From Squalus acanthias (Eukaryota), in the NCBI GenBank assembly GCA_030390025.1, contig CM059432.1, forward strand, positions 2,294,001 to 2,358,000: DNA of 64,000 nucleotides. Reading direction: 5' to 3'. The notes beneath the pieces are model-generated. The model saw only the letters and a list, made by a program, of their open reading frames with translations. It did no database searches and was not told the DNA's origin. Position 1 is the first letter of the stretch. Every line of letters begins with the position of its first letter. Both the position numbers and the translations under genes were made by a program. Below, one piece after another: positions 5,081 through 58,393 of this stretch.

Positions 5081-5512
5081 TAATGGGGCGCAAAGCAACT
5101 AGCACCCAGGCACGGTGCTGCCAATGCCTCCCGTGAAATTCAACGGAAGGTTAGCGGCGGCGGTAACAGTTAGTGCCCCACGGGGCTGTGCCACCAGCGA
5201 TGATCTTCGGTAGCACCCCCTGACTTACCGGCCTCCTTGAAGCCCCCCCTGCAGCACTTCTCTTGAGTGCTCGGCTCTTTCGCCGGCACTCCGATCCCTG
5301 GTGGCCCAGCAGGGCCCCGGGTCGCGCTGCGCTAGGCCCCTCCCCTTTAAGAAGGGGAGGAAGGCCTGCAGTACCGCGGCGCGACGTGCCGCAACGCGTG
5401 GCGCTGCGGCACATACCGCCGCAATATTCACTCGCAGTGCCCCAAGAGGTAGGCGGGGCACTTCCAGTAGGGGCACTACCGATGAATTTTGGCCGCGGGG
5501 GTGCTACTTTTT
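5081..5512. mobile_element. Truncated Harbinger MITE
   Basis: Matches the MITE interior and subterminal TAATGGGGCG; both TIRs lost. Confidence 0.8.
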
Positions 5513-6062
5513 TGGAAAAGTTGTAATACTTTGAAAAGTTGTAATAGTTAGAAAGTTGTAATATTTAGAAAGTTGTAATATTTTGAAAGTGGTAATATTT
5601 TGAAAGTGGTAATATTTTGAAAGTTGTAATATTTAGAAAAGTTGTAATATTTATAAATTTGTAATATTTAGAAAGTTGTAATATTTTGAAAGTTGTAATA
5701 TTTAGAAAAGTTGTAATATTTATAAGTTGTAATATTTTGAAAAGTTGTAATATTAAAAAGTTGTAATATTTAGAAAGTTGTAATATTTTAAAAAGTTGTA
5801 ATATTTAGAAAGTTGTAATATTTTGAAAAGTTGTAATATTTAGAAAGTTGTAATATTTAGAATGTTGTAATACTTTGAAAAGTTTTAATATTTAGAAAGT
5901 TGTAATATTTAGAAAAGTTGTATTATTTAGAAAGTTGTAATATTTTGAAAAGTTTTGATATTTAGAAAATTGTAATATTTTGAAAAGTTGTTATATTTAG
6001 AAAGTAGTAATATTTTGAAAAGTTGTAATATTTAGAAAGTTGTAATATTCTGAAAAGCTATA

Positions 6063-7277: not shown

Positions 7278-7540
7278 GGCCTAAAAATTCAGTTGCTTTG
7301 CACCTCCCGTTAGTGCTAATGGGGTGAAAAGCAACGAGCACCCAGGCACGGTGCCGCCAACGCCTCCCGCGAAATTCAACGGAGGTTAGCGGCGGCGGTA
7401 ACTGCTAGCGCCCCACGGCGCTGTGCCACCGGCGATGATTCACTCGCAGCACCTCAAGAGTGAGCCGGGGCACTTCCAGTAGCACCCCACTTCCCTCTTG
7501 GGGCACTACCAATGAATTTCGGCCGCAGGGGTGCAAATGT
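7278..7540. mobile_element. Harbinger MITE with degenerate left TIR, internally deleted and right-truncated
   Basis: GGCCTAAAAATTCAGTTG follows AAAGTTGTA; interior matches the 5081 fragment. Confidence 0.75.
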
Positions 7541-10603: not shown

Positions 10604-11692
10604 AAAAACACAGCATCAGTTTCCACATGTACGCTGATGACACCCAGCTCTACCTCACTACTTCTTCTCTCGACCCCTCCACGGTGTCTAAGTTGTCAGA
10701 CTGCTTGTCCGACATACAGTTCTGGATGAGCAAAAATTTTCTCCAATTAAATATTGGGAAAACCGAAGCCATTTTTTTGGTCCCCGCCACAAACTCTGTT
10801 CCCTAGCCACATAGAAACATAAAAACATAGAAGATAGGAGCAGGAGTAGGCCATTCGGCCCCTTGAGCCTGCTCCGCCATTCAATGCGATCATGGCTGAT
10901 CATCCAAATTCAGTACCCTGTCCCTGCTTTCTCCCCATATCCCTTGGTCCCTTTAGCCTTAAGAAATATATCTAACTCCTTCTTGAATATATTTAATGAA
11001 TTGGCCTCAACTGCCTTCTGTGGTAGAGAATTCCACAGGTTCACCACTCTCTGTGTGAAGAAGTTCCTCCTCATCTCAGTCCTAAATGGCTTACCCCTTA
11101 TCCTTAGACTGTGACCTCTGGTTCTGGACTCCCCCACCATCGGGAACATCCTTCCTGCATCCACTGACTCCATCCCTCTCCCTAACATCTGTCTGAGGCT
11201 GAACCACACTGTTCGCAACCAAGTCCCATTCGCCCATCTCCCCTGTGCTCGCTGACCTACATTGGCTCCCGGTTAAGCAGCGCCTCGATTTCAAAATTCT
11301 CATCCTTGTTTTCAAATCCCTCCATGACCTCGCCCCTTCCTATCTCTGTAACCTCCTCCAGCCCCACAACCCCCCGAGATATCTGCGCTCCTCTAATTCT
11401 GCCCTCTTGAGCATCCCTGATTATAATCGCTCCACCATTGGTGGCCGTGCCTTCTGTTGCCTGGGCCCTAAGCTCTGGAATTCCCTGCCGAAACCTGTCC
11501 ACCTCGCTACCTCTCTTTCCTCCTTTAAGACGCTCCTTAAAACCTACCTCTTTGACCAGGCTTTTGATCACCTGCCATAATTTATCCTTATGTGGATCGG
11601 TGTCAAATTTTTTGTCTTAAAATACTCCTGTGCAGCACCTTGGGACGTTTTACTACGTTAAAGGCGCTATATAAATACAAGTTGTTGTTGTT
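10604..11692 (+). mobile_element. 5'-truncated L2-clade LINE with nested CR1 and an internal deletion
   Basis: YADDTQLY and LHWLPVKQRLDFKIL motifs; tail AAAGGCGCTATATAAATACAA(GTT)n; ~250 bp missing at 11220 relative to the 17889 copy. Confidence 0.88.
10811..11160 (-). mobile_element. CR1 3' fragment nested in L2
   Basis: (ATAGAAAC) tail, RRNFFTQRVVNLWNSLP; CCAC on both sides. Confidence 0.9.
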
Positions 11693-12861
11693 ATTTAGAA
11701 AGTTGTAATATTTAGAAAGTTGTAATATTTTGAAAGTAGTAATATTTTGAAAGTGCTAATATTTTGAAAATGGTAATATTTAGAAAGTTGAAATACTTTG
11801 AAAAGCTGTAATATTTAGAATGTTGTAATATTTAGAATGTTGTAATATTTTGAAAAGTTGTAATATTTAGAAAGTTGAAATATTTTGAAAAGCTGTAATA
11901 TTTAGAATGTTGTAATATTTAGAATGTTGTAATATTTTGAAAAGTTGTAATATTTAGAAAGTTGTAATATTTTGAAAAGTTGTAATATTTTGAAAGTGCT
12001 AATATTTTGAAAGTGGTAATATTTAGAAAGTTGTAATATTTTGAAAAGTTGTAATATTTTGCAAGTGGTAATATTTTGAAAGTTGTAATATTTAGAAAGT
12101 TGTAATATTTAGAAAAATTGTAATATTTAGAAAGTTGTAATATTTAGAAAGTTGTAATATTTTGAAAGTTGTAATATTTAGAACTTTGTAATATTTTGAA
12201 AAGTTTTAACATTTAGAAAGTGGTAAGATTTAGAAAGTTGTAATACTTTGAAAAGTTTTAATATTTAGAAAGTTGTAATATTTTCAAAGTTGTAATATTT
12301 AGAATGTTGTAATATTTAGAATGTTGTAATATTTTGAAAAGTTGTAATATTTAGAAAGTTGTAATATTTTGAACAGTGGTAAGATTTAGAAAGTTGTAAT
12401 ATTTTGAAAAGTTGTAATATTTTGAAAGTTGTAACATTTAGAAAGTGGTAAGATTTAGAAAGTTGTAATACTTTGAAAAGTTTTAATATTTAGAAAGTTG
12501 TAATATTTTCAAGTGGTAATATTTTGAAAAGTTGTAATATTTGGAAAGTTGTAATATTTTGAAAGTGGTAAGATGTCGAAAGTTGATATATTTTGAAAAG
12601 TAATAGTTTGAAAAGTTTTAATATTTAGAAAGTTGTAATATTTTGCAAAGTGCTAACATTTAGAAAGGGGTAATATCTTGAAAGTTGTAGGGGTAAAAAT
12701 TCAGTTGGTTGCGCCTCCCATTAGCGCCTTAAATGGGCGCTAATGGGGCGTTAAGGCGCTAACGCCCGGGCGCAGCGCTGTTTGCGCCGCTCGAGAACTT
12801 AACTTGAGATTGTGCGGCGGCGCTAAAACTTACCGCTGCGACCACCTGCGCGCGCAGATTG

Positions 12862-13006
12862 TGACGTCAGTCCGTGGTGCAACGCCCTTGGGGCGCCCCG
12901 GAGCGGAAATTGAGTGGCGCCCCCTGCCTTACCGCCTGGCGCTTCCAACGACCGGAAGACTGGAACGTTATCAATCGGTCTGGGGCTGGGGGGGGCGCTA
13001 TTTAAA
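12862..13006 (+). promoter_or_regulatory. Putative transposase promoter (CRE TGACGTCA + TATTTAAA)
   Basis: TGACGTCA at 12862-12869 and TATTTAAA at 12999-13006; both motifs recur in the divergent relatives. Confidence 0.4.
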
Positions 13007-13201
13007 GGGGGCCTCTTCCTGTCTTTTTCTGTGGTCGACATTTATGCACCACTCGTTCTGAGAGAGAGAGAGAGATTCGGAGAGAGAGAGAGAGAGACTT
13101 CTACATTGACTCAACGCTTTGTGAGGTAGTTTTGCCTAGTTCATCCTAACTTTGCTGCTACTTTCGTTGCTGTACCTCATTACTTTTCTGGCAAAGAGAA
13201 G

Positions 13202-14362
13202 ATGGGGGCTGCAATGATTGGGGGCGTCGTCCTGCTCCAGCTCAATCGGAGCAGAGTGAGACGCAGACAGAGAGTGGCAATGATGGCCAGACGGAGGAGG
13301 CCCATCAGGCGCATGTACAGGAGAGCTTACCCTCCCAGGGTATATCGTGAACAGCTCTCCTACATCCACATGTCCGAGGAGCTGTGTTTGCGAAGGCTGC
13401 GATTCAGCAAGGAGGTGGTCACTGAGCTCTGCCACCTGCTGCAGCCAGATCTGCAGCCTCAGCTGAGGTCCAGGACGTCTCTGTCGGTGGCAGTGAAGGT
13501 CACAGTGGCCTTGAACTTCTACGCCACTGGCTCATTCCAAGCTGCTGTTGGGGACCTCGCCAATATCTCCCAGTTTGCGGTGCATCGCTGCATCCGGCAG
13601 GTCACCAATGCCCTCTTCACAAGGAGACGAGACTTCATCTCCTTCCCTATGACCCCAGACAAGCAGCATGACCGTGCTATGGGCTTTGCGAGGGTAGCGG
13701 GCTTCCCCATGGTGCAGGGCGCCATTGACTGCACGCATGTGGCTTTGCGTGCTCCGCGAGAGAATGCAGAGGAGTTCCGGAACAGAAAGGGGTTCCATTC
13801 CTTGAATGTGCAGTTGGTCTGTGACCACAGACAGGTGATTCTCGCTGTCAATGCCCACTATCCGGGCAGCTGCCACGATGCTTTCATCCTGTGCCAGAGT
13901 ACTGTGGCAGAAATTTTCGAGGCACCGCATCAGCCAGTTGGTTGGCTTCTGGGGGACAAGGGGTACGCATTGAGCACCTGGCTGATGACACCGCTCCGTG
14001 CGCCAAACACCCCTGCTGAGCTGCGGTACCAGGAAAGCCAACAAGCAACGAGGAACATTATTGAGCGCACAATCGGCGTGCTCAAACAACGATTCCGCTG
14101 TCTGGACCATTCCGGAGGAGCCCTGCAGTACTCGCCTGAGCAAGTTTCCAAATTCGTAGTGGTGTGCTGCATGTTGCACAACATGGCAATCCTCAGGACG
14201 CAGCCAATGCCACCAGGCCTTGCAGCACCACAAGAGGAGGAGGAGGAAGAGGAGGAACAGGCCGAGGACGATGATCAGCAGCAGCACCAAGGCAGGAGGG
14301 CGGCCCACAATGGTCAAACTGCAAGGGCCGTCCGTCAACGACTAATAGCAAGCCGCTTCTAG
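13202..14362 (+). CDS. Harbinger DDE transposase (HARBI1-like family), 386 aa
   Basis: [46 protein letters not shown] and CCMLHN motifs; open frame. Confidence 0.95.
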   Translation: MGAAMIGGVVLLQLNRSRVRRRQRVAMMARRRRPIRRMYRRAYPPRVYREQLSYIHMSEELCLRRLRFSKEVVTELCHLLQPDLQPQLRSRTSLSVAVKVTVALNFYATGSFQAAVGDLANISQFAVHRCIRQVTNALFTRRRDFISFPMTPDKQHDRAMGFARVAGFPMVQGAIDCTHVALRAPRENAEEFRNRKGFHSLNVQLVCDHRQVILAVNAHYPGSCHDAFILCQSTVAEIFEAPHQPVGWLLGDKGYALSTWLMTPLRAPNTPAELRYQESQQATRNIIERTIGVLKQRFRCLDHSGGALQYSPEQVSKFVVVCCMLHNMAILRTQPMPPGLAAPQEEEEEEEEQAEDDDQQQHQGRRAAHNGQTARAVRQRLIASRF

Positions 14363-14656
14363 GGCCCCTGCCAGTGCTACAAACACGAATCAACCCAGCA
14401 CGCAACCCCTAAGCCGGCCAAGGCACCAATAATTCCAACCACCAGCCATGTATATTTTGAATACAGAAACTTATTTATTGTACAAACTCTGTGTGTGTCA
14501 ATTCCTCATGACAAACTCATAGAAATAAACACAAAAAAACAGTCAATAACATAACTGGTTCTCACAACCTGGAGATAATGTCCAAAACACTAAACAAAAG
14601 TTGGGCCATGAACCTCGGCCTTTAATAAAAAAATGACCAGCATTTTGGCACACCTC

Positions 14657-16567
14657 CTACTTTTTGCCCTTCGAGGGTGATCTCCTTCCCTTGCGCACTT
14701 CCCCCCTTCTAACCCTACTGCTCCTCCGTAATGGGACCTCAGTGGCTGCAGCAAGGCTGGTGGAAGGCTGCTGCTTGTCAGACCCTGACACTGCAGATGC
14801 CCCTGAAGGCCGGCCTCGACCACTTCTGGGCCTGGAGGGCCCGGCTGCAGACTGCACCAACTCTGCATGGGCGGCAGCAGTCTGTCCTACAGGCGGTGGC
14901 AAGTGCAGTGGAGAAGTGACAGTGTTGGCAGCAGGAATGCTGTCATCGTGAGAGAGGACAGCAACTCCCTGCTCGCCCGACACACTGGCACTCCCACGGG
15001 GCAGCACTTCAGCATCCGGAGCAATTTGCCGGAGAACAGATTGCTGGCCTGCTGCGGCGCGGTGACAGCCCCGGGGACATGTGCACGAACCATCGAGGAT
15101 GGCAGCAGTCAGTGCTCGCGTGGCCTCAATCTGAGTCTGCATGAGAGCAGGCTCAGATGGGTTCCTGGCAGCCAGTGACTGAATTGCAGCAGTAAGCTTT
15201 AGTGTGGCATCCGCCTGTGCTACAGCGAAGTGCTCCACACTCCTTGCCAGTGCCTCAATGCATTCGGGCACCCTTCCCACTGCACCCATGAGCTCAGTGT
15301 GCATGACCACCGCCTGGCTGTTCATTTCTGCAATCAGCCGCTCCTCCTCTGCGTCCATTGCATTAGGAGTGTCTGGCATACTCTCCCTCTGGGGAGAAGG
15401 CTCCCGTTCTTCCCTCCCCCCCCCCATGGCGTTGCTGCAGCCCGCTGGGTCCTGGAACTTCACCATCATCAGCCCCTTCCCCCCTGCTCCCCCGTTCTTC
15501 CCTCCCCCCCCCATGGCGTTGCTGCAGCCCGCTGGGTCCTGCAACTTCACCATCATCAGCTCCTTCCCCCCTGCTCCCCTCCGGGGAAGGCGTGTTCCCA
15601 GTGTGGCCATGGGCTTCCTCGGGAGAGGGTGGCACTGATGCTCCGGCTTCCTCTTCCTCCTCAGCTGCAGCATCACTCCCAGTGGCAGCTTCAGGGACCA
15701 TCTCCTCAGCTGGTGAATCACCATCTGAAAGCAGGGAGGTACAAGAGTGGCTTTAGCGTGAGGACAGGGTGGCAGTAAGGGAGGAATAAGTGCAGCGAGT
15801 TAGCAAGTTGGATTGAAAGTGTCAAAGGCTGGTATTGTGAGGGACAAGTGGAAGGACAGAGGACAAAAAGGTGATGACCTTACCATTGCTGTCCACAACG
15901 GGGTCGGCGTCTCCAGTGGCGACGGGACCGATCACCCGGCTTGCCACAATCCTGTGGACGCGCTCCTCCAGATCGCTGAGGGGTTGCAGCTGAAGCCGCC
16001 CTCCACCCGTCCGTTGCTGCTGTCTCCGATTATGAGCCAGCTTAGCCTGCAAGAAAAAGGACAGCATCTGAGTCAATATACAGCCATGGTCTTGCCTGAT
16101 GTGCCTCCCATAGGTGAATAGCCCTTACAATATGCAGCCATGGTCTTGCCTGATGTGCCTCCCATAGGTGAATAGCCCTTACTGTATGCAAAGTGTGGAA
16201 TGTGTGTGTGTGTTTGATGAAAGGGCCATAGGTGTTGGATGAGTGTTGTGCATTGGGGTTTTAAGACCCTCTGGCCATAGAGTGAGGTTGAGATGGAGGG
16301 ATGGAGAGGTATTGAGAAAAAGCCACTCACCCTGACGACCCGAGTGAGGTCGTTGAACTTTTTGCGGCACTGGACATGGGTCCTGGGCACCATGCTCCTG
16401 GAGGAGACGCTCTGAGCCACCTCCCTCCACACTCTTCTGAACTCGCGTGGCAAAGGCCTCCTGCCACTCTCTGGGAACAGCATGCATCGTCTGCGCTCCA
16501 CTGCGTCAACCAGAGCATCCAAGGCCCGCTCGGTGAAGCGATGAGCGCGTTCTCTCACCCTCTCCAT
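14657..16567 (-). pseudogene. Harbinger Myb/SANT-like DNA-binding gene, 3 exons, +1 frameshift in a C10 run
   Basis: Exons 16567-16331, 16046-15884 and 15724-14657 with GT-AG introns; RFTERALDALV...WREVA...RTHVQCRKKFNDL and RTGGG. C10 at 15416-15425 versus C9 in copy 2 (could be a sequencing error). Confidence 0.8.
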
Positions 16568-17073
16568 GCTTGGCAGCAAAATGGATTACAGGTCTCTCCA
16601 GGCTGAGATTCAAGGCTGCAATGAGCAGGGTGTGGCTGGGGAGCAAGTGGCCCCCCCCGCTTTAAGAAGTGTCCGGCGCCAGTGTGTCTGTGTTCCCGCG
16701 CTAACTGGCAGCAGCTGCGCTGCGCTCGTGCGCTGAGTTAGCGCCTCACTCCTAGGCCTTTGCGCCTTAAGAGAGGTGTGCAGCGCCTAATTTAGCGCTC
16801 CACTCACCTCCCGGGGCGGTAAAAGTGAAGTTTCCTGTCAGTGCCGATAATTAGCGCCAGGCGCTAATATTTGCGCGCGGACGATATTTGCGCCCCAAAT
16901 GGGGCGCGACCTAATTTCTACCCCGTAATATTTTAAAAGTGGTAATATTTAGAAAAGATGTAATATTTAGAAAGTTGTAATATTTTGAAAAGTGGTAAGA
17001 TTTAGAAAGTTGTAACATTTTGAAAGTGGTAATATTTTGAAACTATAATATTCTGAAAGTGGTATTATTTATA

Positions 17074-17405
17074 GGGGGGAAAATTCAGTTGGTTTGCGCC
17101 TCCCGTTACCGCCTTAAGATCTAAATGTTACAACTTTCAAAATATTACATCTTTTCAAAATATTACAACTTTCAAAATATTACAACCTCAGCAGGGCCCC
17201 GGTTCGCGCTGCGCAAGGCCCCTCCCCTTTAAGAAGGGGAGGAAGGCCTGCAATACCGCGGTGTGACGTGCAGTAGCGCCCCGCTGCCCTTTTGGGGCGC
17301 AACCACTCAATTTCCGGAGCGGGGGCGCTAATTTTCATGGGGCGCTAAAAGTAGCGGCCCGGCGAAGTTAGTGCCACAAAGGGGGCGCGACTCAATTTCC
17401 CCCCC
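17074..17405. mobile_element. Harbinger MITE carrying inverted satellite (copy A)
   Basis: TIRs GGGGGGAAAATTCAG / CTCAATTTCCCCCCC; TSD ATA; reverse-strand monomers at 17120-17186. Confidence 0.9.
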
Positions 17406-17888
17406 ATAAAGTTGTAATATTTAAAAAAGTTGTAATATTTAGAAAGTTGTAATATTTTGAAAAGTGGTAAGATTTAGAAAGATGTAATATTTTGAAAAGT
17501 TGTAATATTGAGAAAGTTGTAATATTTTGAAAAGTTTTAATATTTAGAAAGTTGTAATATTTAGAAAGTTGTAATATTTTGAACAGTGGTAAGATTTAGA
17601 AAGTTGTAATATTTTAAAAAGTTGTAATATTTTGAAAGTTGTAACATTTAGAAAGTGGTAAGATTTAGAAAGTTGTAATACTTTGAAAAGTTTTAATATT
17701 TAGAAAGTTGTAATATTTTCAAGTGGTAATATTTTGAAAAGTTGTAATATTTGGAAAGTTGTAATATTTTGAAAAGTGGTAAGATTTAGAAAGTTGTAAT
17801 ATTTTGAAAAGTTGCAATATTTTGCAAGTGGTAATATTTTGAAAAGTTGCAATATTTAGAAAGTTGTAATATTTTGAAAAGTTGTAAT

Positions 17889-18894
17889 AAAAACACAGCA
17901 TCATTTTCCACATGTACGCTGACGACAGCCAGCTTTACCTCACTACTTCTTCTCTCGACCCTTCCACGGTCTCTAAATTGTCAGACTGCTTGTCAAACAT
18001 ACAGTTCTGGATGAGCAAAAATTTTCTCCAATTAAATATTGGGAAAACCGAAGCCATTTTTCTCGGTCCCCGCCACAAACTCTGTTCCTGAGCCACTGAC
18101 TCCATCCCTCTCCCTAACATCTGTCTGAGGCGGAACCCCACTGTTCGCAACCTTGGTGTCATATTTGACCCTGAAATGAGCTTCCGACCACATATCCACA
18201 GCATAACAAAGACCGCCTACTTCCACCTCTACCATCGCCCGTCTCCGCCCTTGCCTCAGCTCATCCGCTGCTGAAACCCTCATCCATGCCTTTGTTACCT
18301 CTAGACTTGACTATTCCAACGCACTCCTGGCCGGCCTCCCACATTCCACCCTATGTAAACTTGAGGTCATCCAAAACTCGGCTGCCCGTGTCCTAACTCG
18401 CACCAAGTCCCGTTCGGCCATCACCCCTGTCCTCGCTGACCTATATTGGCTCCCGGTTAAGCAGTGCCTCGATTTCAAAATTCTCATCCTTGTTTTCAAA
18501 TCCCTCCATAGCCTCTCCCCTCCCTATCTCTGTAATCTCCTCCAGCCCCACAACTCCCCTCCACCCCCCGCCCCCCCGAGATATCTGCGCTCCTCTAATT
18601 CTGCCCTCTTGAGGATCCCTGATTATAATTGCTCAACCTTTGGTGGCCGTGCCTTCTGTTGACTGGGCCCTAAGCTCTGGAATTCCCTGCCTAAACCTCT
18701 CCGCCTCTCTACCTCTCTCTCCTCCTTTAAGACACTCCTTAAAACCTACCTCTTTGATCAAGCTTTTGGTCACCTGCCCTAATTTATCCTTATGTGGCTC
18801 GGTGTCAAATTTTTTGTCTTAAAATACTCCTGTGCAGCGCCTTGGGACGTTTTACTATGTTAAAGGCGCTATATAAATACACGTTGTTGTTGTT
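17889..18894 (+). mobile_element. L2-clade LINE 3' fragment (duplicate of 10604)
   Basis: Same 5' junction GTTGTAAT|AAAAACACAGC and same (GTT)n tail junction. Confidence 0.88.
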
Positions 18895-19310
18895 ATTTAG
18901 AAATTCGTAATATTTTGAAAGTGGTAATATTTTGAAACTATAATATTTTGAAAGTGGTAATATTTATAAAGTTGTAATATTTTGAAAAGTTGTAATATTT
19001 TGAAAGTGGTAAGATGTCGAAAGTTGATATATTTTGAAAAGTAATATTTTGAAAAGTTTTAATATTTAGAAAGTTGTAATATTTTGAAAAGTGCTAACAT
19101 TTAGAAAGGTGTAATATTTTAAAAGTGGTAATATTTAGAAAAGTTGGAATATTTAGAAAGTAGTAATATTCTGAAAGTTGTAATATTTTGAAAGTGGTAA
19201 TATTTAGAAAGTTGTAATATTTTGAAAAGTGGCAAGATTTAGAAAGTTGTAACATTTTGAAAGTGGTAATATTTTGAAACTATAATATTCTGAAAGTGGT
19301 ATTATTTATA

Positions 19311-19677
19311 GGGGGGAAAATTCAGTTGGTTTGCGCCTCCCGTTAGCGCCTTAAGATCTAAATGTTACAACTTTCAAAATATTACATCTTTTCAAAATAT
19401 TACAACTTTCTAAATGTTACAACTTTTCAAAATATTACAGCTTTCAAAATATTACAACCCCAGCAGGGCCCCGGTTCGTGCTGCGCAAGGCCCCTCCCCT
19501 TTAAGAAGGGGAGGAAGGCCTGCAATACCGCGGTGTGACGTGCAGTAGCGCCCCGCTGCCCTTTTGGGGCGCAACCACTCAATTTCCGGAGCGGGGGTGC
19601 TAATTTTTATGGGGCGCTAAAAGTAGCGGCCCGGCGAAGTTAGTGCCACAAAGGGGGCGCGACTCAATTTCCCCCCC
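19311..19677. mobile_element. Harbinger MITE carrying inverted satellite (copy B)
   Basis: Same TIRs and ATA TSD; inverted monomers at 19357-19458. Confidence 0.9.
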
Positions 19678-19952
19678 ATAAAGTTGTAATATTTAAAAAA
19701 GTTGTAATATTTAGAAAGTTGTAATATTTTGAAAAGTGGTAAGATTTAGAAAGATGTAATATTTTGAAAAGTTGTAATATTGAGAAAGTTGTAATATTTT
19801 GAAAAGTTTTAATATTTAGAAAGTTGTAATATTTAGAAAGTTGTAATATTTTGAACTGTGGTAAGATTTAGAAAGTTGTAATATTTTGCAAGTGGTAATA
19901 TTTTGAAAAGTTGCAATATTTAGAAAGTTGTAATATTTTGAAAAGTTGTAAT

Positions 19953-20595
19953 AAAAACACAGCATCATTTTCCACATGTACGCTGACGACAGCCAGCTTT
20001 ACCTCACTACTTCTTCTCTCGACTCTTCCACGGTCTCTAAATTGTCAGACTGCTTGTCAAACATACAGTTCTGGATGAGCAAAAATTTTCTCCAATTAAA
20101 TATTGGGAAAACCGAAGCCATTTTTTTCGGTCCCCGCCACAAACTCTGTTCCCTAGCCACTGACTCCATCCCTCTCCCTAACATCTGTCTGAGGCGGAAC
20201 CACACTGTTCGCAACCTTGGTGTCATATTTGACCCTGAAATGAGCTTCCGACCACATATCCACAGCATAACAAAGACCGCCTACTTCCACCTCTACCATC
20301 GCCCGTCTCCGCCCTTGCCTCAGCTCATCCGCTGCTGAAACCCTCATCCTTGCCTTTGTTACCTCTAGACTTGACTATTCCAACACACTCCTGGCCGGCC
20401 TCCCACATTCCACCCTATGTAAACTTGAGGTCATCCAAAACTCGGCTGCCCGTGTCCTAACTCGCACCAAGTCCCGTTCGGCCATCACCCCTGTGCTCGC
20501 TGACCTATATTGGCTCCCGGTTAAGCAGTGCCTCGATTTCAAAATTCTCATCCTTGTTTTCAAATCCCTCCATGGCCTCGCCCCTTCCTATCTCT
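19953..20595 (+). mobile_element. L2 fragment duplicate, 3'-truncated
   Basis: Same 5' junction; ends at CCTATCTCT. Confidence 0.85.
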
Positions 20596-21350
20596 TTAAT
20601 ATTTAGAAAGTTGTAATATTTAGAAAGTTGTAATATTTTGAAAAGTGGTAAGATTTAGAAAGTTGTAATATTTTGAAAAGTTGTAATATTTTGAAAGTTG
20701 TAACATTTAGAAAGTGGTAATATTTTGAAAAGTTTTTATATTTTGAAAGTGGTAATATTTAGAAAAGTTGTAATATTTAGAAAGTTGTAATAATTTGACA
20801 AATTGAATTTTTTAGAAAGTGGTAATATTTTGAAAAGTTGTAATATTTTGAAAGTGGTAATATTTTGAGAGTTGCAATATTTTGAAAGTGGTAATATTTA
20901 GAAAGTTTTAATATTTTGAAAGTCGTAATAAATTGAAAAATTGATTTTTTTCGAAAGTGGTAATATTTTGAAATGTTGTAATATTTTGAAAGTGGTAATA
21001 TTTTGAGAGTTTTAATATTTTGAAAGTTGTAATATATTGAAAGTGGTAATATTTTGAAAAGTTTTAATATTTAGAAAGTTGTAATATTTTGAAAAGTGCT
21101 AACATTTAGAAAGGTGTAATATTTTGAAAGTTGTAATATTTTAAAAGTGGTAATATTTAGAAAAGTTGGAATATTTAGAAAGTAGTAATATTCTGAAAGT
21201 TGTAATATTTTGAAAGTGGTAATATTTAGAAAAGATGTAATATTTAGAAAGTTGTAATATTTTGAAAAGTAGCAAGATTTAGAAAGTTGTAACATTTTGA
21301 AAGTGGTAATATATTGAAACTATAATATTCTGAAAGTGGTATTATTTATA

Positions 21351-21716
21351 GGGGGAAAATTCAGTTGGTTTGCGCCTCCCGTTAGCGCCTTAAGATCTAA
21401 ATGTTACAACTTTCAAAATATTACATCTTTTCAAAATATTACAACTTTCTAAATGTTACAACTTTTCAAAATATTACAACTTTCTAAATATTACAACCCC
21501 AGCAGGGCCCCGGTTCGCGCTGCGCAAGGCCCCTCCCCTTTAAGAAGGGGAGGAAGGCCTGCAATACCGCGGTGTGACGTGCAGTAGCGCCCCGCTGCCC
21601 ATTTGGGGCACAACCACTCAATTTCCGGAGCGGGGGTGCTAATTTTTATGGGGCGCTAAAAGTAGCGGCCCGGCGAAGTTAGTGCCACAAAGGGGGCGCG
21701 ACTCAATTTCCCCCCC
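21351..21716. mobile_element. Harbinger MITE carrying inverted satellite (copy C)
   Basis: Same TIRs and ATA TSD; inverted monomers at 21396-21497. Confidence 0.9.
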
Positions 21717-22061: not shown

Positions 22062-22704
22062 AAAAACACAGCATCATTTTCCACATGTACGCTGACGACA
22101 GCCAGCTTTACCTCACTACTTCTTCTCTCGACCCTTCCACGGTCTCTAAATTGTCAGACTGCTTGTCAAACATACAGTTCTGGATGAGCAAAAATTTTCT
22201 CCAAATAAATATTGGGAAAACCGAAGCCATTTTTTTCGGTCCCCGCCACAAACTCCGTTCCCTAGCCACTGACTCCATCCCTCTCCCTAACATCTGTCTG
22301 AGGCGGAACCACACTGTTCGCAACCTTGGTGTCATATTTGACCCTGAAATGAGCTTCCGACCACATATCCACAGCATAACAAAGACCGCCTACTTCCACC
22401 TCTAACATCGCACGTCTCCGCCCTTGCCTCAGCTCATCCGCTGCTGAAACCCTCATCCATGCCTTTGTTACCTCTAGACTTGACTATTCCAACACACTCC
22501 TGGCCGGCCTCCCACATTCCACCCTATGTAAACTTGAGGTCATCCAAAACTCGGCTGCCCGTGTCCTAACTCGCACCAAGTCCCGTTCGGCTATCACCCC
22601 TGTGCTCGCTGACCTATATTGGCTCCCGGTTAAGCAGTGCCTCGATTTCAAAATTCTCATCCTTGTTTTCAAATCCCTCCATGGCCTCGCCCCTTCCTAT
22701 CTCT
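22062..22704 (+). mobile_element. L2 fragment duplicate, 3'-truncated
   Basis: Both junctions identical to the 19953 copy. Confidence 0.85.
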
Positions 22705-29790: not shown

Positions 29791-32753
29791 GTAATATTTA
29801 GAAAGTTGTAATATTTTGAAAAGTTGTAATTTTTAGAAAGTTGTAATATTTTGAAAAGTGGTAATATTTTGAAAAGTTGTAATATTTAGAAAGTTGTAAT
29901 ATTTTAAAAACCTGTAAGATTTAGAAAGTTATAATATTTTGAAAAGTTGCAATATTTAGAAAGTTGCAATATTTTGAAAAGTTGTAATATTTTGAAAATG
30001 TCATATTATGAAAGTTGCAATATTTTGAAAGTGGTAATATTTAGAAAGTTGTAATATTTTGAAAGTTGTAATATTTAGAAAGTTGTAATATTTTGAAAGT
30101 TGTAATATTTGGAAAAGTTGTAATATTTTGAAAAGTTGTAATATTCAGAAAAGTTGTAATATTTTGAAAGTTGTAATATTTTGAAAGTTGTAATATTTAG
30201 AAAAGTTGTAATATTTAGAAAGTTGTAATATTTTGAAAAGCGGTAAGATTTAGAAAGTTATAATATTTTGAAAAGTTGTAATATTTAGAAAGTTGTAATA
30301 TTTTGAAAAGTTGTAATTTTTAGAAAGTTGTAATATTTTGAAAAGTGGTAATATTTTGAAAAATTGTAATATTTAGAAAGTTGTAATATTTTAAAAACCT
30401 GTAAGATTTAGAAAGTTATAATATTTTGAAAAGTTGCAATATTTAGAAAGTTGCAATATTTTGAAAAGTTGTAATATTTTGAAAATGTCATATTATGAAA
30501 GTTGCAATATTTTGAAAGTGGTAATATTTAGAAAGTTGTAATATTTAGAAAGTTGTAATATTTTGAAAGTTGTAATATTTTGAAAAGTTGTAATATTTTG
30601 AAAAGTAATATTCAGAAAAGTTGTAATATTTTGAAAGTTGTAATATTTTGAAAGTTGTAATATTTAGAAACTTGCAATATTTTTAAAAGTTGTAATATTT
30701 TGAAAAGGTGTAATATTTTGAAAGTGGGAATATTTAGAATGCTGTAATATTTTGAAAAGTGGTAATATTTTGAAAAGTTGTATTTTTTTGAATAGTGGTA
30801 AGATTTAGAAAGTGGTAATATTTAGAAAGTTGTAATATTTTGAAAAGTTGTAATATTTAGAAAGTTGTAATATTTTGAAAAGTTGTAATATTTAGAAAGT
30901 TGTAATATTTTGAAAAGTGGTAATATTTTGAAAAGTTGTAATATTTAGAAAGTTGTAATATTTTGCCAAGTAGTAATATTTTGAAAATGTAATATTTTGA
31001 AAAGTTGTAATATTTTAAAAGTTCTAATATTTAGACAGGTAATATTTTGAAAAGTAGTAATTTTTAGAAATTTGTAATATTTTGCAAGTGGCAATATTTT
31101 AAAAAGTTGCAATATTTAGAGAGTTGTAATATTTTGAAAGTTGCAATATTTTGAAAACTGGTAATATTTAGCAAGTTGCGATATTTTCAAAAGTTGTAAT
31201 ATTTTGAAAATGTCATATTTTGAGAGTTGCAATATTTTGAATGTGGTAATATTTAGAAAAGTTGTAATATTTTGAAAATGTCATATTATGAAAGTTGCAA
31301 TATTTTGAAAGTGGTAATATTTAGAAAGTTGCAATTTTTAGAAATTTGTAATGTTTTGAAAAATTGTAATATTTTGAAAGTAGCAATATTTTGCAAAGTT
31401 TTAATATTTTGAAAGTGGTAATATTTAGCAAGTGGTAATGTTTTGAAAAGTTGTAATATTTAGAAACTTGCAATATTTTGAAAAGTTGTAATATTTTGAA
31501 AAGGTGTAATATTTTGAAAGTGGTAATATTTAGAATGCTGTAATATTTTGAAAAGTGGTAATATTTTGAAAAGTTGTATTTTTTTGAAAAGTGGTAAGAT
31601 TTAGAAAGTGGTAATATTTAGAAAGTTGTAATATTTTGAAAAGTTGTAATATTTAGAAAGTTGTAATATTTTGAAAAGTGGTAATATTTTGAAAAGTTGT
31701 AATATTTAGAAAGTTGTAATATTTTGCCAAGTTGTAATATTTTGAAAATGTAATATTTTGAAAAGTTGTAATATTTTAAAAGTTCTAATATTTAGACAGG
31801 TAATATTTTGAAAAGTAGTAATTTTTAGAAATTTGTAATATTTTGCAAGTGGCAATATTTTAAAAAGTTGCAATATTTAGAGAGTTGTAATATTTTGAAA
31901 GTTGCAATATTTTGAAAAGTTGTAATATTTAGCAAGTTGCAATATTTTCAAAAGTTGTAATATTTTGAAAATGTCATATTTTGAAAGTTGCAATTTTTTG
32001 AATGTGGTAATATTTAGAAATGTTGTAATATTTAGAAAGTTGTAATATTTTGAAAATGTCATATTTTGAAAAGTTGTAATATTTTGAAAGTGGTAATATT
32101 TAGAAAGTTGTAATTTTTAGAAATTTGTAATGTTTTGAAAAATTGTAATATTTTGAAAGTAGCAATATTTTGCAAAGTTTTAATATTTTGAAAGTGGTAA
32201 TATTTAGCAAGTGGTAATGTTTTGAAAAGTTGTAATATTTAGAAACTTGGGGGTAAAAATTCAGTTGGTTGCGCCTCCCGTTAGCGCCTTAAATGGGCGC
32301 TAATGGGGCGTTAAGGCGCTAACGCCCGGGCGCAGCGCTGTTTGCGCCGCTCGAGAACTTAACTTGAGATTGTGCGGCAGCGCTAAAACTTACCGCTGCG
32401 ACCACCTGCGCGCGCAGATTGTGACGTCAGTCCGTGGTGCAACGCCCTTGGGGCGCCCCGGAGCGGAAATTGAGTGGCGCCCCCTGCCTTACCGCCTGGC
32501 GCTTCCAACGACCGGAAGACTGGAACGTTATCAATCGGTCTGGGGCTGGGGGGGGCGCTATTTAAAGGGGGCCTCTTCCTGTCTTTTTCTGTGGTCGACA
32601 TTTATGCACCACTCGTTCTGAGAGAGAGAGATTCGGAGAGAGAGAGAGACTTCTACATTGACTCAACGCTTTGTGAGGTAGTTTTGCCTAGTTCATCCTA
32701 ACTTTGCTGCTACTTTCGTTGCTGTACCTCATTACTTTTCTGGCAAAGAGAAG

Positions 32754-33914
32754 ATGGGGGCTGCAATGATTGGGGGCGTCGTCCTGCTCCAGCTCAATCG
32801 GAGCAGAGTGAGACGCAGACAGAGAGTGGCAATGATGGCCAGACGGAGGAGGCCCATCAGGCGCATGTACAGGAGAGCTTACCCTCCCAGGGTATATCGT
32901 GAACAGCTCTCCTACATCCACATGTCCGAGGAGCTGTGTTTGCGAAGGCTGCGATTCAGCAAGGAGGTGGTCACTGAGCTCTGCCACCTGCTGCAGCCAG
33001 ATCTGCAGCCTCAGCTGAGGTCCAGGACGTCTCTGTCGGTGGCAGTGAAGGTCACAGTGGCCTTGAACTTCTACGCCACTGGCTCATTCCAAGCTGCTGT
33101 TGGGGACCTCGCCAATATCTCCCAGTTTGCGGTGCATCGCTGCATCCGGCAGGTCACCAATGCCCTCTTCACAAGGAGACGAGACTTCATCTCCTTCCCT
33201 ATGACCCCAGACAAGCAGCATGACCGTGCTATGGGCTTTGCGAGGGTAGCGGGCTTCCCCATGGTGCAGGGCGCCATTGACTGCACGCATGTGGCTTTGC
33301 GTGCTCCGCGAGAGAATGCAGAGGAGTTCCGGAACAGAAAGGGGTTCCATTCCTTGAATGTGCAGTTGGTCTGTGACCACAGACAGGTGATTCTCGCTGT
33401 CAATGCCCACTATCCGGGCAGCTGCCACGATGCTTTCATCCTGCGCCAGAGTACTGTGGCAGAAATTTTCGAGGCACCGCATCAGCCAGTCGGTTGGCTT
33501 CTGGGGGACAAGGGGTACGCATTGAGCACCTGGCTGATGACACCGCTCCGTGCGCCAAACACCCCTGCTGAGCTGCGGTACCAGGAAAGCCAACAAGCAA
33601 CGAGGAACATTATTGAGCGCACAATCGGCGTGCTCAAACAACGATTCCGCTGTCTGGACCATTCCGGAGGAGCCCTGCAGTACTCGCCTGAGCAAGTTTC
33701 CAAATTCGTAGTGGTGTGCTGCATGTTGCACAACATGGCAATCCTCAGGACGCAGCCAATGCCACCAGGCCTTGCAGCACCACAAGAGGAGGAGGAGGAA
33801 GAGGAGGAACAGGCCGAGGACGATGATCAGCAGCAGCACCAAGGCAGGAGGGCGGCCCACAATGGTCAAACTGCAAGGGCCGTCCGTCAACGACTAATAG
33901 CAAGCCGCTTCTAG
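32754..33914 (+). CDS. Harbinger DDE transposase, 386 aa
   Basis: Differs from copy 1 only at AFILRQ versus AFILCQ in the ORF track. Confidence 0.95.
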   Translation: MGAAMIGGVVLLQLNRSRVRRRQRVAMMARRRRPIRRMYRRAYPPRVYREQLSYIHMSEELCLRRLRFSKEVVTELCHLLQPDLQPQLRSRTSLSVAVKVTVALNFYATGSFQAAVGDLANISQFAVHRCIRQVTNALFTRRRDFISFPMTPDKQHDRAMGFARVAGFPMVQGAIDCTHVALRAPRENAEEFRNRKGFHSLNVQLVCDHRQVILAVNAHYPGSCHDAFILRQSTVAEIFEAPHQPVGWLLGDKGYALSTWLMTPLRAPNTPAELRYQESQQATRNIIERTIGVLKQRFRCLDHSGGALQYSPEQVSKFVVVCCMLHNMAILRTQPMPPGLAAPQEEEEEEEEQAEDDDQQQHQGRRAAHNGQTARAVRQRLIASRF

Positions 33915-34208
33915 GGCCCCTGCCAGTGCTACAAACACGAATCAACCCAGCACGCAACCCCTAAGCCGGCCAAGGCACCAATAATTCCAACCACCAGCCA
34001 TGTATATTTTGAATACAGAAACTTATTTATTGTACAAACTCTGTGTGTGTCAATTCCTCATGACAAACTCATAGAAATAAACACAAAAAAACAGTCAATA
34101 ATATAACTGGTTCTCACAACCTGGAGATAATGTCCAAAACACTAAACAAAAGTTGGGCCATGAACCTCGGCCTTTAATAAAAAAATGACCAGCATTTTGG
34201 CACACCTC

Positions 34209-36118
34209 CTACTTTTTGCCCTTCGAGGGTGATCTCCTTCCCTTGCGCACTTCCCCCCTTCTAACCCTACTGCTCCTCCGTAATGGGACCTCAGTGGCTG
34301 CAGCAAGGCTGGTGGAAGGCTGCTGCTTGTCAGACCCTGACACTGCAGATGCCCCTGAAGGCCGGCCTCGACCACTTCTGGGCCTGGAGGGCCCGGCTGC
34401 AGACTGCACCAACTCTGCATGGGCGGCAGCAGTCTGTCCTACAGGCGGTGGCAAGTGCAGTGGAGAAGTGACAGTGTTGGCAGCAGGAATGCTGTCATCG
34501 TGAGAGAGGACAGCAACTCCCTGCTCGCCCGACACACTGGCACTCCCACGGGGCAGCACTTCAGCATCCGGAGCAATTTGCCTGAGAACAGATTGCTGGC
34601 CTGCTGCGGCGCGGTGACAGCCCCGGGGACATGTGCACGAACCATCGAGGATGGCAGCAGTCAGTGCTCGCGTGGCCTCAATCTGAGTCTGCATGAGAGC
34701 AGGCTCAGATGGGTTCCTGGCAGCCAGTGACTGAATTGCAGCAGTAAGCTTTAGTGTGGCATCCGCCTGTGCTACAGCGAAGTGCTCCACACTCCTTGCC
34801 AGTGCCTCAATGCATTCGGGCACCCTTCCCACTGCACCCATGAGCTCAGTGTGCATGACCACCGCCTGGCTGTTCATTTCTGCAATCAGCCGCTCCTCCT
34901 CTGCGTCCATTGCATTAGGAGTGTCTGGCATACTCTCCCTCTGGGGAGAAGGCTCCCGTTCTTCCCTCCCCCCCCCATGGCGTTGCTGCAGCCCGCTGGG
35001 TCCTGGAACTTCACCATCATCAGCCCCTTCCCCCCTGCTCCCCCGTTCTTCCCTCCCCCCCCCATGGCGTTGCTGCAGCCCGCTGGGTCCTGGAACTTCA
35101 CCATCATCAGCCCCTTCCCCCCTGCTCCCCTCCGGGGAAGGCGTGTTCCCAGTGTGGCCATGGGCTTCCTCGGGAGAGGGTGGCACTGATGCTCCGGCTT
35201 CCTCTTCCTCCTCAGCTGCAGCATCACTCCCAGTGGCAGCTTCAGGGACCATCTCCTCAGCTGGTGAATCACCATCTGAAAGCAGGGAGGTACAAGAGTG
35301 GCTTTAGCGTGAGGACAGGGTGGCAGTAAGGGAGGAATAAGTGCAGCGAGTTAGCAAGTTGGATTGAAAGTGTCAAAGGCTGGTATTGTGAGGGACAAGT
35401 GGAAGGACAGAGGACAAAAAGGTGATGACCTTACCATTGCTGTCCACAACGGGGTCGGCGTCTCCAGTGGCGACGGGACCGATCACCCGGCTTGCCACAA
35501 TCCTGTGGACGCGCTCCTCCAGATCGCTGAGGGGTTGCAGCTGAAGCCGCCCTCCACCCGTCCGTTGCTGCTGTCTCCGATTATGAGCCAGCTTAGCCTG
35601 CAAGAAAAAGGACAGCATCTGAGTCAATATACAGCCATGGTCTTGCCTGATGTGCCTCCCATAGGTGAATAGCCCTTACAATATGCAGCCATGGTCTTGC
35701 CTGATGTGCCTCCCATAGGTGAATAGCCCTTACTGTATGCAAAGTGTGGAATGTGTGTGTGTGTTTGATGAAAGGGCCATAGGTGTTGGATGAGTGTTGT
35801 GCATTGGGGTTTTAAGACCCTCTGGCCATAGAGTGAGGTTGAGATGGAGGGATGGAGAGGTATTGAGAAAAAGCCACTCACCCTGACGACCCGAGTGAGG
35901 TCGTTGAACTTTTTGCGGCACTGGACATGGGTCCTGGGCACCATGCTCCTGGAGGAGACGCTCTGAGCCACCTCCCTCCACACTCTTCTGAACTCGCGTG
36001 GCAAAGGCCTCCTGCCACTCTCTGGGAACAGCATGCATCGTCTGCGCTCCACTGCGTCAACCAGAGCATCCAAGGCCCGCTCGGTGAAGCGATGAGCGCG
36101 TTCTCTCACCCTCTCCAT
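34209..36118 (-). CDS. Harbinger Myb/SANT-like protein, 3 exons, predicted 488 aa
   Basis: Exons 36118-35882 (237 nt), 35597-35435 (163 nt) and 35275-34209 (1067 nt); AGG|GTGAGT, TTGCAG|, G|GTAAG and TTTCAG| splice sites join in frame; basic C-terminus RRSSRVRRGEVRKGRRSPSKGKK. Confidence 0.85.
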
Positions 36119-38199: not shown

Positions 38200-38274
38200 G
38201 AAACAGAAACATAGAAGATAGGAGCAGTAGGCCATTCGGCCCCTCGAGCCTGCACTGCCATCTAATAAGATCAT
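38200..38274 (-). mobile_element. CR1 3' tail only
   Basis: GAAACATAGAAGATAGGAGCAG...GATCAT, flanked by GAAAGTGGTAATA on both sides. Confidence 0.8.
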
Positions 38275-39222: not shown

Positions 39223-39302
39223 GAAACATAGAAACATAGAAGATAGGAGCAGGAGTACGCCATTCTGCCCCTCGGGCCTGCACCACCATTTAATGAGATC
39301 AT
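39223..39302 (-). mobile_element. CR1 3' tail only (duplicate of 38200)
   Basis: Identical junctions to the 38200 insert. Confidence 0.8.
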
Positions 39303-45593: not shown

Positions 45594-45903
45594 GAGGTGT
45601 GACAAAATGTTGGTCATTTTTTTTTAAAGGCCGAGGTTCGTGGTCAAACTTTTGTTTAGTGTTTTGGACATTATCTCCAGGTTGTGAGAACCAGTTATGT
45701 TAATGACTGTGTTTTTGTGTTTCTTTCTATTAGTTTGTCATGAGGAAATGACACACACAGAGTTTGTGAAATAAATAAGTTTTTGTATTCAAAATGTACA
45801 TGTTTGGTCTTTGGAATCATTGCTGCCTTGGCCGGCTTAGGGGTTGCGGGTTGGTTTCATTCATGTTGTTCTCAATAGCAGGAGCCATTTCCTCAGCAGG
45901 GGC

Positions 45904-57257: not shown

Positions 57258-58393
57258 TAGGGTCGCCAACCCTGGTGGGATTGCCCTGGAGACTCCAGGA
57301 ATTGAAGATGAATGTCCTGGGAACTACTTCCCACAAACTGGGAGAAAGATTATTGGGGCATTAAAAGACATTTTTTTTTCATTTACTTTGAACACTTAGG
57401 GGTAAAAATTGAGTCGCGCCCCATTTGGGGCGCTAACCTCGCCGGGGCGCGACTTTTAGCGCCCCGAAAAAATTAGCGGCCCCGCGCCGGAACTTCAGTG
57501 GTTGCGCCCCAAGAGGGAAGCGGGGCGCCACTGGAAGCACCCCGCATCCCTCTTGGGGCGCTGCGAGTGAATATCCTGGCGCTACGTGCCGCAGCGCCAC
57601 GCGCTGCGGCACGTCGCGCCGCGGTATTGCAGGCCTTCCTCCCCTTCTTAAAGGGGAGGGACCCTGCGCAGCGCGAACCGGGGCCCAGCTGGGCCCCCAG
57701 GGATCGGGAGTGCCGGCAAAAGAGCCCGGCACTCAAGAGAAGTGCCGGGCTCTTGGAGCGCAGCCGGCACTTCACGGTGGGGGGGCTTCACGGGGGCCGG
57801 GGGCAGGTGCTGGCAGGCGGCCAGCAACAAAAATGGCCGCCTGCCACCTCCCCTTTAAATATCGCCGCCCCGGCCGCACGTACGCCTCCCTGAACCCGTC
57901 GGACATAGCGTCTGGCGGTAAATCAGGGGGCGCGACTGAAGATCACGGCCGGGGCGCGAGCGGGGCGCTGCGCACAGCGATGACGTCATCGCCGGCGGCG
58001 CAGCGCCACAGGGCGCTACCGGCTGCCGCCGCCGCTAACCTCCCACTAAATTTTTCGGGAGGCGTGGGCGGCGCTGCGCCCGGGCGTTAGCTGCTTTACG
58101 CCCCATTAGCGCCCTCTTAAGGCGCTAACGGGAGGTGCAAGCAGCTGAATTTTTCCCCCTTAGTTATAATAATATAGGATGGCGGAGGGGGTGGGGGGGG
58201 AGGCTGTTTGATTGACAGTCAAGATTCATCCAATCGGGTGACGAAGAGTCTCTTGGCTTTCCGATTGGCCGCGGGAAGGCGGGGCGCCGCATGGATGGGC
58301 GTGTCGGGCGACCAATGGCGAAAGGATGTTTGGAGGCGGACGGGTCCTCTGACGATGCCTCCAGGAACACAACCAACCACAGTTGGCAAGCCC
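57258..58393. mobile_element. Possible old hAT-like MITE split by the Harbinger MITE
   Basis: TAGGGTCGCCAAC ... GTTGGCAAGCCC imperfect inverted ends; no TSD confirmed. Confidence 0.35.
57399..58159. mobile_element. GC-rich Harbinger MITE, 761 bp, outside the satellite
   Basis: TIRs GGGGTAAAAATTGAG / CTGAATTTTTCCCCC; TSD TTA. Confidence 0.93.

Follow-up and report, generated by a model that had tools for sequence, protein, structure and literature searches.

The composite element that occurs three times in a satellite array of Squalus acanthias is, as judged by its sequence, a non-autonomous Harbinger MITE that has lost part of its interior and carries reverse-complement satellite filler where the deletion was closed. 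It was probably formed only once, by repair of a break in place; two passive duplications of the tandem unit that holds it followed, and it is likely without function. The window analyzed is the whole stretch of 64,000 nucleotides around the three copies (contig CM059432.1 of assembly GCA_030390025.1, positions 2,294,001 to 2,358,000).

Each of the three copies in the window comprises a left arm of 45–46 bp, 67–102 bp of inverted 17-bp satellite and a right arm of 219 bp. Copy 1 (17074..17405, plus strand, 332 bp) lies between ATA duplications at 17071-17073 and 17406-17408; copy 2 (19311..19677, plus strand, 367 bp) and copy 3 (21351..21716, plus strand, 366 bp) have the same ATA site and flanks. 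The terminal inverted repeats (TIRs) start with GGGGG(G)AAAATT and GGGGGGGAAATT; in copies 1 and 2 the two ends agree at 12 of their first 14 bases, and over the left 46 bp identity with the ends of autonomous elements and MITEs is 87–96%, as expected of a shared TIR. The TIRs, called intact in the original prediction, are near consensus, and the ATA target site duplication given there was found on both sides in all three copies. In copy 1 the left arm (17074..17119, plus strand, 46 bp) holds the TIR and the first subterminal motifs and is followed by the filler (17120..17186, minus strand, 67 bp, about four monomers), by a retained portion of the MITE interior (17187..17270, plus strand, 84 bp), which shows 90–92% identity with the MITEs at 57399-58159, 5082-5514 and 99-373, and by a right end (17271..17405, plus strand, 135 bp) that lies beyond a second deletion and shares 92% identity with the end of the MITE at 3133-3267. 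The fillers of copies 2 and 3 (19357-19458 and 21396-21497, 102 bp each) contain about six monomers and include a 35-bp dimer that is missing from copy 1. The predicted filler coordinates and the estimate of some 4–6 monomers proved correct, and a monomer number that varies between element ends is a feature of satellite-carrying MITEs; the letters given for the right junction need amendment, since copy 1 reads CTCAGC and not CCCAGC.

A full-length relative of the parent MITE (57399..58159, minus strand, 761 bp, with a TTA duplication as read on the plus strand), located outside the array, served as the reference for sizing the deletions. Relative to this element 421 bp are absent at the filler, which gives the deletion-plus-filler structure known from Ds2, and a further 76 bp are absent from the right arm. 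The interior is replaced only in part: 264–265 bp of MITE sequence are kept, and satellite does stand where the 421 bp are missing. Hairpin loops contain three of the four breakpoints as against 16–17% of positions (binomial about 0.015, in a test picked after the fact). The parent MITE forms a 12-bp hairpin in whose loop the left arm of copy 1 stops, and the right break falls in a loop only in the parent variant of 99-373, which fits the loose-end consensus described below, not in the 57399 copy. The left arm of the composite holds just 1–2 subterminal motifs versus 3–7 in most relatives, and for this reason transposase is predicted to act poorly on the element.

All three copies are embedded in a tandem unit of 2.0–2.3 kb composed of satellite, MITE, satellite and a LINE fragment. 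This fragment, which is taken to be of L2 type, spans 17890..18893 in unit 1 (plus strand, 1004 bp including the 3′ tail), 19954..20594 in unit 2 (plus strand, 641 bp, cut on its 3′ side) and 22063..22703 in unit 3 (plus strand, truncated as in unit 2), and units 2 and 3 stay homologous as far as 21006/23115. A Pfam search of the unit-2 fragment returned a weak RVT_1 match below the cut-off (E 6e-4); a LINE at 10605 carries an internal insertion and its identities were taken from local alignment. Divergence between copies is similar for the element (1.4–2.1%), the LINE (1.1–2.2%) and the satellite flanks (0.4–4.7%), indicating that the element and its surroundings diverged together.

A paralogous empty site occurs at 18909..19028 (plus strand), with a single ATA at 18966-18968. 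The joined flanks of the composite differ from it, at 18929, by 6/80 mismatches (12 at the next-best place) and, over the longer comparison, by 13/120 (against 23), which argues for a single insertion, apparently before the triplication. The empty site was also considered as a precise excision of one copy; this was rejected, as it is free of the private flank changes common to all three. The ATA register was used by none of the eight other insertions in the array, five of which are in minus orientation. The original prediction had named the sharing of one ATA site as the outcome that speaks against mobility, and within the window this is what was found, with three of three copies at one site between the same flanks.

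Satellite orientation is almost uniform across the window: a 12-mer of the monomer, allowing at most one mismatch, gave 843 matches (827 forward, 16 reverse), and all 16 reverse matches sit inside the three composite fillers. The view that these are the only inverted satellite in the window did not hold, as a micro-inversion of about 25 bp, without any MITE, lies at 49704-49728, and it is counted here as support for repair in place. The filler is the reverse complement of the flanking satellite, as a snap-back product should be. It contains a rare GATGT monomer (9/821 parsed) that also occurs, within 130 bp, in both flanks. The best match to the copy-3 filler (3/102 mismatches) is located about 1 kb away inside the tandem unit. 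No exact template was found in the window, and random monomer strings reached three or fewer mismatches in 2/300 and 18/300 trials, so that a local origin of the filler is weakly supported. Comparison of both filler junctions with the parent MITE revealed no clear microhomology; at the left junction AGA is followed by TCT, a palindrome of 3 nt that was evaluated as a snap-back primer and set aside because its chance expectation is too high.

The TATA-like box TTCTTAAAG had been placed on the minus strand at 17227-17235; it is present there, within the retained interior and 40 bp from the filler. In the window 14 of its 15 occurrences are inside Harbinger elements or fragments, and from the sequence it is an inherited family motif and a putative promoter. 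The predicted fold-back on the flanking array also follows, as a geometric consequence of the inverted filler. The folding energy is -139 kcal/mol (z -12.5), compared with -55 kcal/mol when the filler is turned round and -55 to -61 kcal/mol for plain array on that strand; as any inverted copy folds, this energy is no evidence of function. Rfam gave no matches at the gathering score between 16900 and 22100.

Public contigs from four runs were inspected, with 32 pieces listed and 44,812 further ones; such contigs drop variants and their depth does not equal copy number. The parent MITE is highly abundant in them and heavily deleted, and many other internal-deletion joints of it are listed, several with filler letters. 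At breakpoints 19356, 19459 and 19543 the commonest loose ends are the continuation of the parent MITE in four of four runs. The left junction of the composite is bridged by one of eight listed pieces in run X1 and one of eight in run X3, both from the same sample, at depths of 16.7 (14.4–23 and one of 105 for the other listed pieces of X1) and 6.99 (8–17.3 in X3), and these pieces agree exactly with copy 1 in start point and in three differing letters. None of the listed pieces extends across the right junction or covers the element in full, and no amplified junction family appears among them; the parts that lacked cover, namely the right junction and the second deletion, were given no evidential weight. 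In run X6, which bears another organism label, the junction is bridged by none of eight listed pieces, and this proves no absence; runs X6–X15, with other organism labels, share 15–28% of words.

A candidate partner is close at hand. An autonomous Harbinger at 12690..16924 (plus strand), 149 bp to the left of copy 1, encodes a DDE_Tnp_4 transposase on the plus strand (PF13359, E 5e-37) and a Myb/SANT gene on the minus strand (PF13873, E 9e-10), the pair of genes expected of an autonomous member, and is likely the source of transposase. It is not present in the matching flanks of copies 2 and 3. Near-identical autonomous elements, 0.26% apart, have unlike duplications (GTA and TTG), which places transposase activity later than the triplication. 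As both TIRs are near consensus, the composite may still be mobile, with low probability. For mPing, mobilization depends on internal as well as terminal sequence, in the available part of that report (PMC9921582).

The series of events favored here begins with the entry of a MITE of about 760 bp into ATA of a variant satellite monomer, which the duplication and the matching empty site show. The MITE would then have broken, likely in hairpin loops formed by its highly self-complementary sequence, with the loss of the 421 bp and, separately, of the 76 bp seen as deletions. One end of the break probably folded back, or changed template to nearby satellite, copied about 100 nt and was rejoined, which would yield the reversed orientation of the filler without any transposition. 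Finally, array turnover tripled the element, its flanks and the neighboring LINE fragment, as the three units attest. The original interpretation is retained in part: the uptake of satellite is best read as filling during repair, whereas mobility of the composite, with transport of satellite and of landing sites, finds no support, given that in the window three of three copies share one ATA site and were co-duplicated with satellite and L2 fragment. Reverse-complement inserts do arise by snap-back repair (PMC5068794, PMC5728401). In the available text of the first of these sources, templated inserts of polymerase theta are mostly <25 bp and snap-back is the minor class; a filler of 102 bp is accordingly long for this pathway (PMC5068794).

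The composite may instead have been born at another site of the array, from a minus-oriented parent that took up filler in array direction, and have made one later jump to the ATA site in plus orientation, with a single locus today. This is unlikely, and some features fit it: with five of eight other array insertions in minus orientation, direct filler would read inverted on the element, templating in trans from the flank is the commoner class in the accessible sections of one study (PMC5068794), TIRs and duplication are intact, and an exact local template is lacking. It demands, however, that an element whose left arm measures 46 bp made one more jump, the GATGT monomer is common to the filler and both present flanks, and flanks about 7% different from the empty site suggest long residence. 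Less probable again is a mobile subfamily that disperses satellite monomers, and with them fresh sites for Harbinger to land in; the same low expectation applies to a transposition-competent MITE with several copies of the target preferred by its family, each jump of which would seed satellite and a landing pad in a self-reinforcing loop; read-through from its putative promoter would also give a satellite hairpin RNA of roughly 90 bp. The filler does hold monomers of the kind struck at GTA by insertions in the array, the near-identical autonomous elements point to transposase active after the triplication, and there is precedent for MITEs as bearers and spreaders of tandem repeats, as far as the available text of these reports goes (PMC3879986, PMC4079207, PMC12628747). 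Against this, none of the three copies is at a second site, the one listed bridging piece per run comes from one sample, has ordinary depth and is of copy-1 type, and the summed depth in X1 is 581 at 19371, satellite contigs included, versus 10^5 to 2x10^6 over the arms. Dispersed copies with independent duplications, as expected of a MITE family, were not found: one site is present in the window, and the listed contig pieces add no second one, which is a weak negative beyond the window.

Two further readings are more doubtful still. A chimera of two neighboring insertions, with the satellite between them inverted by rearrangement or alternative transposition, is very improbable; of the elements in the window, MITEs of 880–895 bp come nearest to the left arm (93–96%) and the 740–760 bp type to the right part, but 46 bp are too little for subfamily assignment, the two flanks together make up an uninterrupted empty site that has one ATA, and the ATA register is unlike that of the other array insertions. 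It is hardly credible that faulty assembly of the array produced the threefold repeat or even the junction. This would agree with the presence of only the copy-1-type junction among the listed public pieces and with the lack among them of any piece across the right junction or the entire element, but the left junction does occur in public contigs, 5–7 substitutions as well as private indels separate the copies, and the LINE truncation common to units 2 and 3 is a derived state.

As found, the composite, probably formed by repair in place, is an ordinary deletion derivative with filler DNA and matters little in itself. The locus illustrates the decay of a hairpin-rich MITE in a satellite array through deletion, filler and passive duplication, and the order of these events. 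Its inverted repeat is a candidate fragile site or a candidate source of satellite double-stranded RNA. Should siblings exist elsewhere, a target-carrying transposon would tie satellite spread to transposon homing; even so, a mobile composite would be a variant and no new class, because MITEs that take up tandem repeats and spread them have already been described. The literature on Harbinger satellite targeting and on MITEs with captured repeats, covered in part, yielded no Harbinger carrying its own target satellite, which is no proof of absence.

The comparisons that follow refer to the available portions of the cited reports. Maize Ds2 and Ds-l4 are deletion derivatives with filler DNA in place of the interior (PMC3260210), and PIF/Harbinger elements of Medicago show abortive gap repair, with tandem repeats and inversions within derivatives (PMC2213677). 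The composite resembles both in keeping its two ends, losing interior and carrying unrelated genomic filler at the joint (PMC3260210, PMC2213677). In contrast to these, its filler is the surrounding satellite, reversed and only 67–102 bp long, and many Ds2 elements are mobile and dispersed whereas the composite is seen at one site (PMC3260210). The deletion with a reverse-complement insert that gives an inverted repeat is like the products of snap-back SD-MMEJ and polymerase theta; in contrast to these, the insert exceeds the usual length of <25 bp, and neither a primer repeat nor an exact template was found in the window; a longer template switch is equally likely (PMC5728401, PMC5068794). 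Repeat-carrying MITEs include DTC84 of Donax (PMC3879986), Tetris of Drosophila virilis (PMC4079207) and miDNA4 and Xstir of Xenopus, with capture of a pre-existing repeat proposed for miDNA4 (PMC12628747). In common with them the composite has a short array of varying number (4 versus 6 monomers) between MITE ends, but they are dispersed high-copy families and it consists of three passive duplicates at one site (PMC3879986, PMC4079207, PMC12628747). With Harbinger3_DR of zebrafish the system shares a two-gene autonomous partner, a 3-bp duplication and a long palindromic target, and loose ends at the left TIR finish in AAAACAC-TA(A/T) in the public runs, which resembles AAACACCWGGTCTTT (PMC3016246, PMC2836001). 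The composite site matches the palindromic target at 5/8 outer A/T positions versus 6–8 at the usual register, and the central triplet is, unlike that of Harbinger3_DR, A+T-rich (TTA, GTA, ATA) (PMC3016246, PMC2836001).

An array of a 17–18 bp satellite, rich in A+T, fills the leading 51 kb of the window; its monomers add up to about 19.4 kb, and Harbinger elements as well as LINE pieces, CR1-type and other, break it up. Two-ended Harbinger elements number 12 in the window, comprising three of autonomous size (12690–16924, 32250–36475, and 43496–47513), six MITEs of 739–895 bp and three copies of a composite in which a MITE carries inverted satellite. In the element at 12690–16924 a transposase (DDE_Tnp_4, E 5e-37) is encoded along with a Myb/SANT protein (E 9e-10); the element differs by 0.26% from that at 32250–36475, and the unlike target duplications (GTA and TTG, respectively) and open transposase frames of the pair mark a recently active family. 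The third element lies between AGA (left) and GTA (right), without a duplication, and is perhaps a recombinant or bordered by a flank deletion. Erosion of MITEs by the array occurs in direct orientation too: the fragments at 99–373, 5082–5514, and 7278–7535 lack one end or both and abut forward satellite directly. Two CR1-like 3′ end stubs of 57–60 bp (38217–38273 and 39242–39301) lie within satellite about 1 kb apart.

Each composite copy (copy 1, 17074–17405; copy 2, 19311–19677; copy 3, 21351–21716) is built of a left arm of 45–46 bp, inverted satellite, 84 bp of MITE interior and a right end of 135 bp, with ATA on both sides. The inverted filler measures 67, 102, and 102 bp, respectively, and occupies the predicted positions (17120–17186, 19357–19458, and 21396–21497). 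Replacement of the MITE interior by satellite, as originally proposed, is partial: relative to the 761-bp element at 57399–58159, the composite has lost 421 bp where the insert lies and another 76 bp at a second point, while the 84 bp of interior are kept. By the tests applied, the composite is a non-autonomous Harbinger derivative. Among 843 matches to a monomer 12-mer in the window, 16 are reversed, all within the three inserts. These are not the only inverted satellite, as had been thought, since a k-mer scan detects a fourth, MITE-free stretch of about 25 bp at 49704–49728. This micro-inversion (to about 49730) forms a short hairpin with the adjoining monomer and involves no transposon. 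At 3133–3267, a 135-bp MITE right end within a CR1-type element starts at approximately the same base as the second deletion of the composite, and the two junctions have a short motif in common.

The three composites and their flanks align at 97% column identity and have private flank variants in common. They are spaced 2237 and 2040 bp apart, each within a tandem unit in which satellite, the element, more satellite and a LINE fragment follow one another (LINE fragments at 17890–18893, 19954–20594, and 22063–22703). Pairwise differences among units are 1.4–2.1% for the elements, 1.1–2.2% for the LINE fragments and 0.4–4.7% for the flanks; the longer filler is common to units 2 and 3, as is a LINE truncation (641 vs. 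1004 bp). A further LINE fragment (10605–11691), whose 5′ junction to satellite is identical to that of 17890, is the product of an older duplication, and its middle is replaced by a piece resembling a CR1 3′ end. When joined, the composite flanks match the sequence from 18929 with 6 mismatches in 80 (12 at the next best place); this sequence is a paralogous empty site with one ATA, which implies a single insertion event. The flanks differ from it by about 7%, more than the copies differ among themselves. All three copies in the window thus occupy the single ATA site, the outcome named in the original prediction as counting against mobility.

The autonomous Harbinger at 12690 sits in the left flank of copy 1 and lacks a counterpart in the homologous flanks of the other two copies; together with its near-identity to 32250 at another duplication, this indicates that transposase was likely active after the triplication. 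No composite is found at a new site in the window despite this probable later activity, three copies giving little power.

Of 21 public runs listed, the best contained 39% of 39 sequence words. Contigs of four of them (X1 and X3 from one sample, X5, and X6; at most three samples) were compared with 19290–19700, eight pieces being listed per run and 44,812 further pieces lying beyond the listing; contigs drop variants, their depth is no copy number, and X1 and X3 may not be independent of the assembly. The parent MITE family is very abundant (summed contig depth over the arms 10^5 to 2 × 10^6); at 19371 the summed depth in X1 is 581, plain satellite contigs included. At 19356, 19459, and 19543, the commonest loose ends carry on into parent MITE sequence in each of the four runs, an independent confirmation of these breakpoints. 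Other internal deletions account for most of the 15 joints listed (of 45), and several of these include filler letters; in one contig of X6, a run under another organism label, an independent deletion with five filler letters begins at 19356, exactly where the left arm breaks within its hairpin loop. Among the listed pieces, the left junction is bridged by a single one of 105 bp in X1 (depth 16.7) and a single one of 104 bp in X3 (depth 6.99), and by none of the eight each for X5 and X6. Both pieces carry three other letters and start at 19316, 30 bases ahead of a private change of copy 1 at 19346. Over their span there are exactly three differences between copies 1 and 2 and none between copies 2 and 3; the simplest reading is therefore that the pieces come from copy 1. 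An opposite-strand joint at 19290 in X3 (6.62) and X5 (21.5) suggests the same ATA flank in two samples. Nothing among the pieces listed for the four runs indicates an amplified composite and, with one site and common flanks in the window, the proposal that the composite moves and carries satellite to other loci is not borne out.

The premise that the filler offers landing sites is sound in principle, as it holds monomers of the preferred kind. Among Harbinger insertions in the array (6063–50705), seven of nine independent sites share the monomer register AAAGTT GTA ATATTT, a clean GTA duplication being present at five of them, and the monomer fits the family's palindromic A-rich/T-rich target. 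The ATA site of the composite lies outside this register (outer A/T pattern 5/8 positions). Loose ends of the runs at the left TIR end in AAAACAC-TA(A/T) (agreement about 0.4), resembling the zebrafish Harbinger3_DR target (PMC3016246). The composite ends are near consensus; the left arm keeps one or two subterminal GCGCC-type motifs (author-chosen set), against 3–7 within the first 160 bp in eight of nine relatives and two in the other. Mobility of mPing is governed by internal and terminal sequences alike (PMC9921582). Of the 15 occurrences of TTCTTAAAG in the window, 14 lie in Harbinger elements or fragments; in two Harbingers of autonomous size the motif precedes the start of Myb by about 95–100 bp. 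It may be a core-promoter motif, inherited by the composite and not special to it. A minus-strand read-through transcript would, from geometry alone, form a long hairpin (predicted energy -139 kcal/mol, as against -55 once the filler is reversed in orientation).

The composite is real and most likely a one-off scar, passively amplified; that it represents a mobile, self-seeding form is very improbable. The parent MITE (about 760 bp) is strongly self-complementary (folding z -21). The left break falls within the loop of a 12-bp hairpin. The right one coincides with the midpoint of an imperfect palindrome of 9 bp, present in the variant at 99–373 and absent from that at 57399, and the second deletion has one end in a loop and the other in the stem of a 20-bp hairpin. 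Three of four breakpoints thus fall in loops, which make up 16–17% of positions (binomial probability about 0.015, rising to 0.05 if loops are taken more loosely as 25%; the test was picked post hoc). When a broken end folds back onto the strand it belongs to, flanking DNA is copied as a reverse complement (PMC5068794 and PMC5728401); a broken MITE end could have folded back in this way and copied flanking satellite reversed, so that the inversion needs no transposition. It is unlikely that the filler was gained in array direction at another array site and brought to the ATA site by one later jump, an order of events with which the minus orientation of five of eight other array insertions agrees. 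No exact template of the filler occurs in the window. The best match to the copy 3 filler has 3/102 mismatches (at 20610 and 22719, both inside the tandem unit) and that to copy 2 five, whereas copy 1 is matched at many places with 4/67; random monomer strings match as well in 2/300 and 18/300 trials. A GATGT monomer head, found in 9 of 821 parsed monomers, four of them in flanks of the copies (two independent places), also occurs in the filler. A local template is modestly suggested by these similarities. Polymerase theta in particular is disfavored, as its inserts are mostly <25 bp (PMC5068794) and the filler junctions have no clear microhomology.

Unlike the satellite-carrying MITEs DTC84, Tetris, and miDNA4, the composite shows no dispersal in the window or among the contig pieces listed. 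It looks like a templated repair insertion, and its workings parallel those of filler derivatives of the Ds2 type (PMC3260210) and of rearranged Harbinger derivatives in Medicago (PMC2213677).
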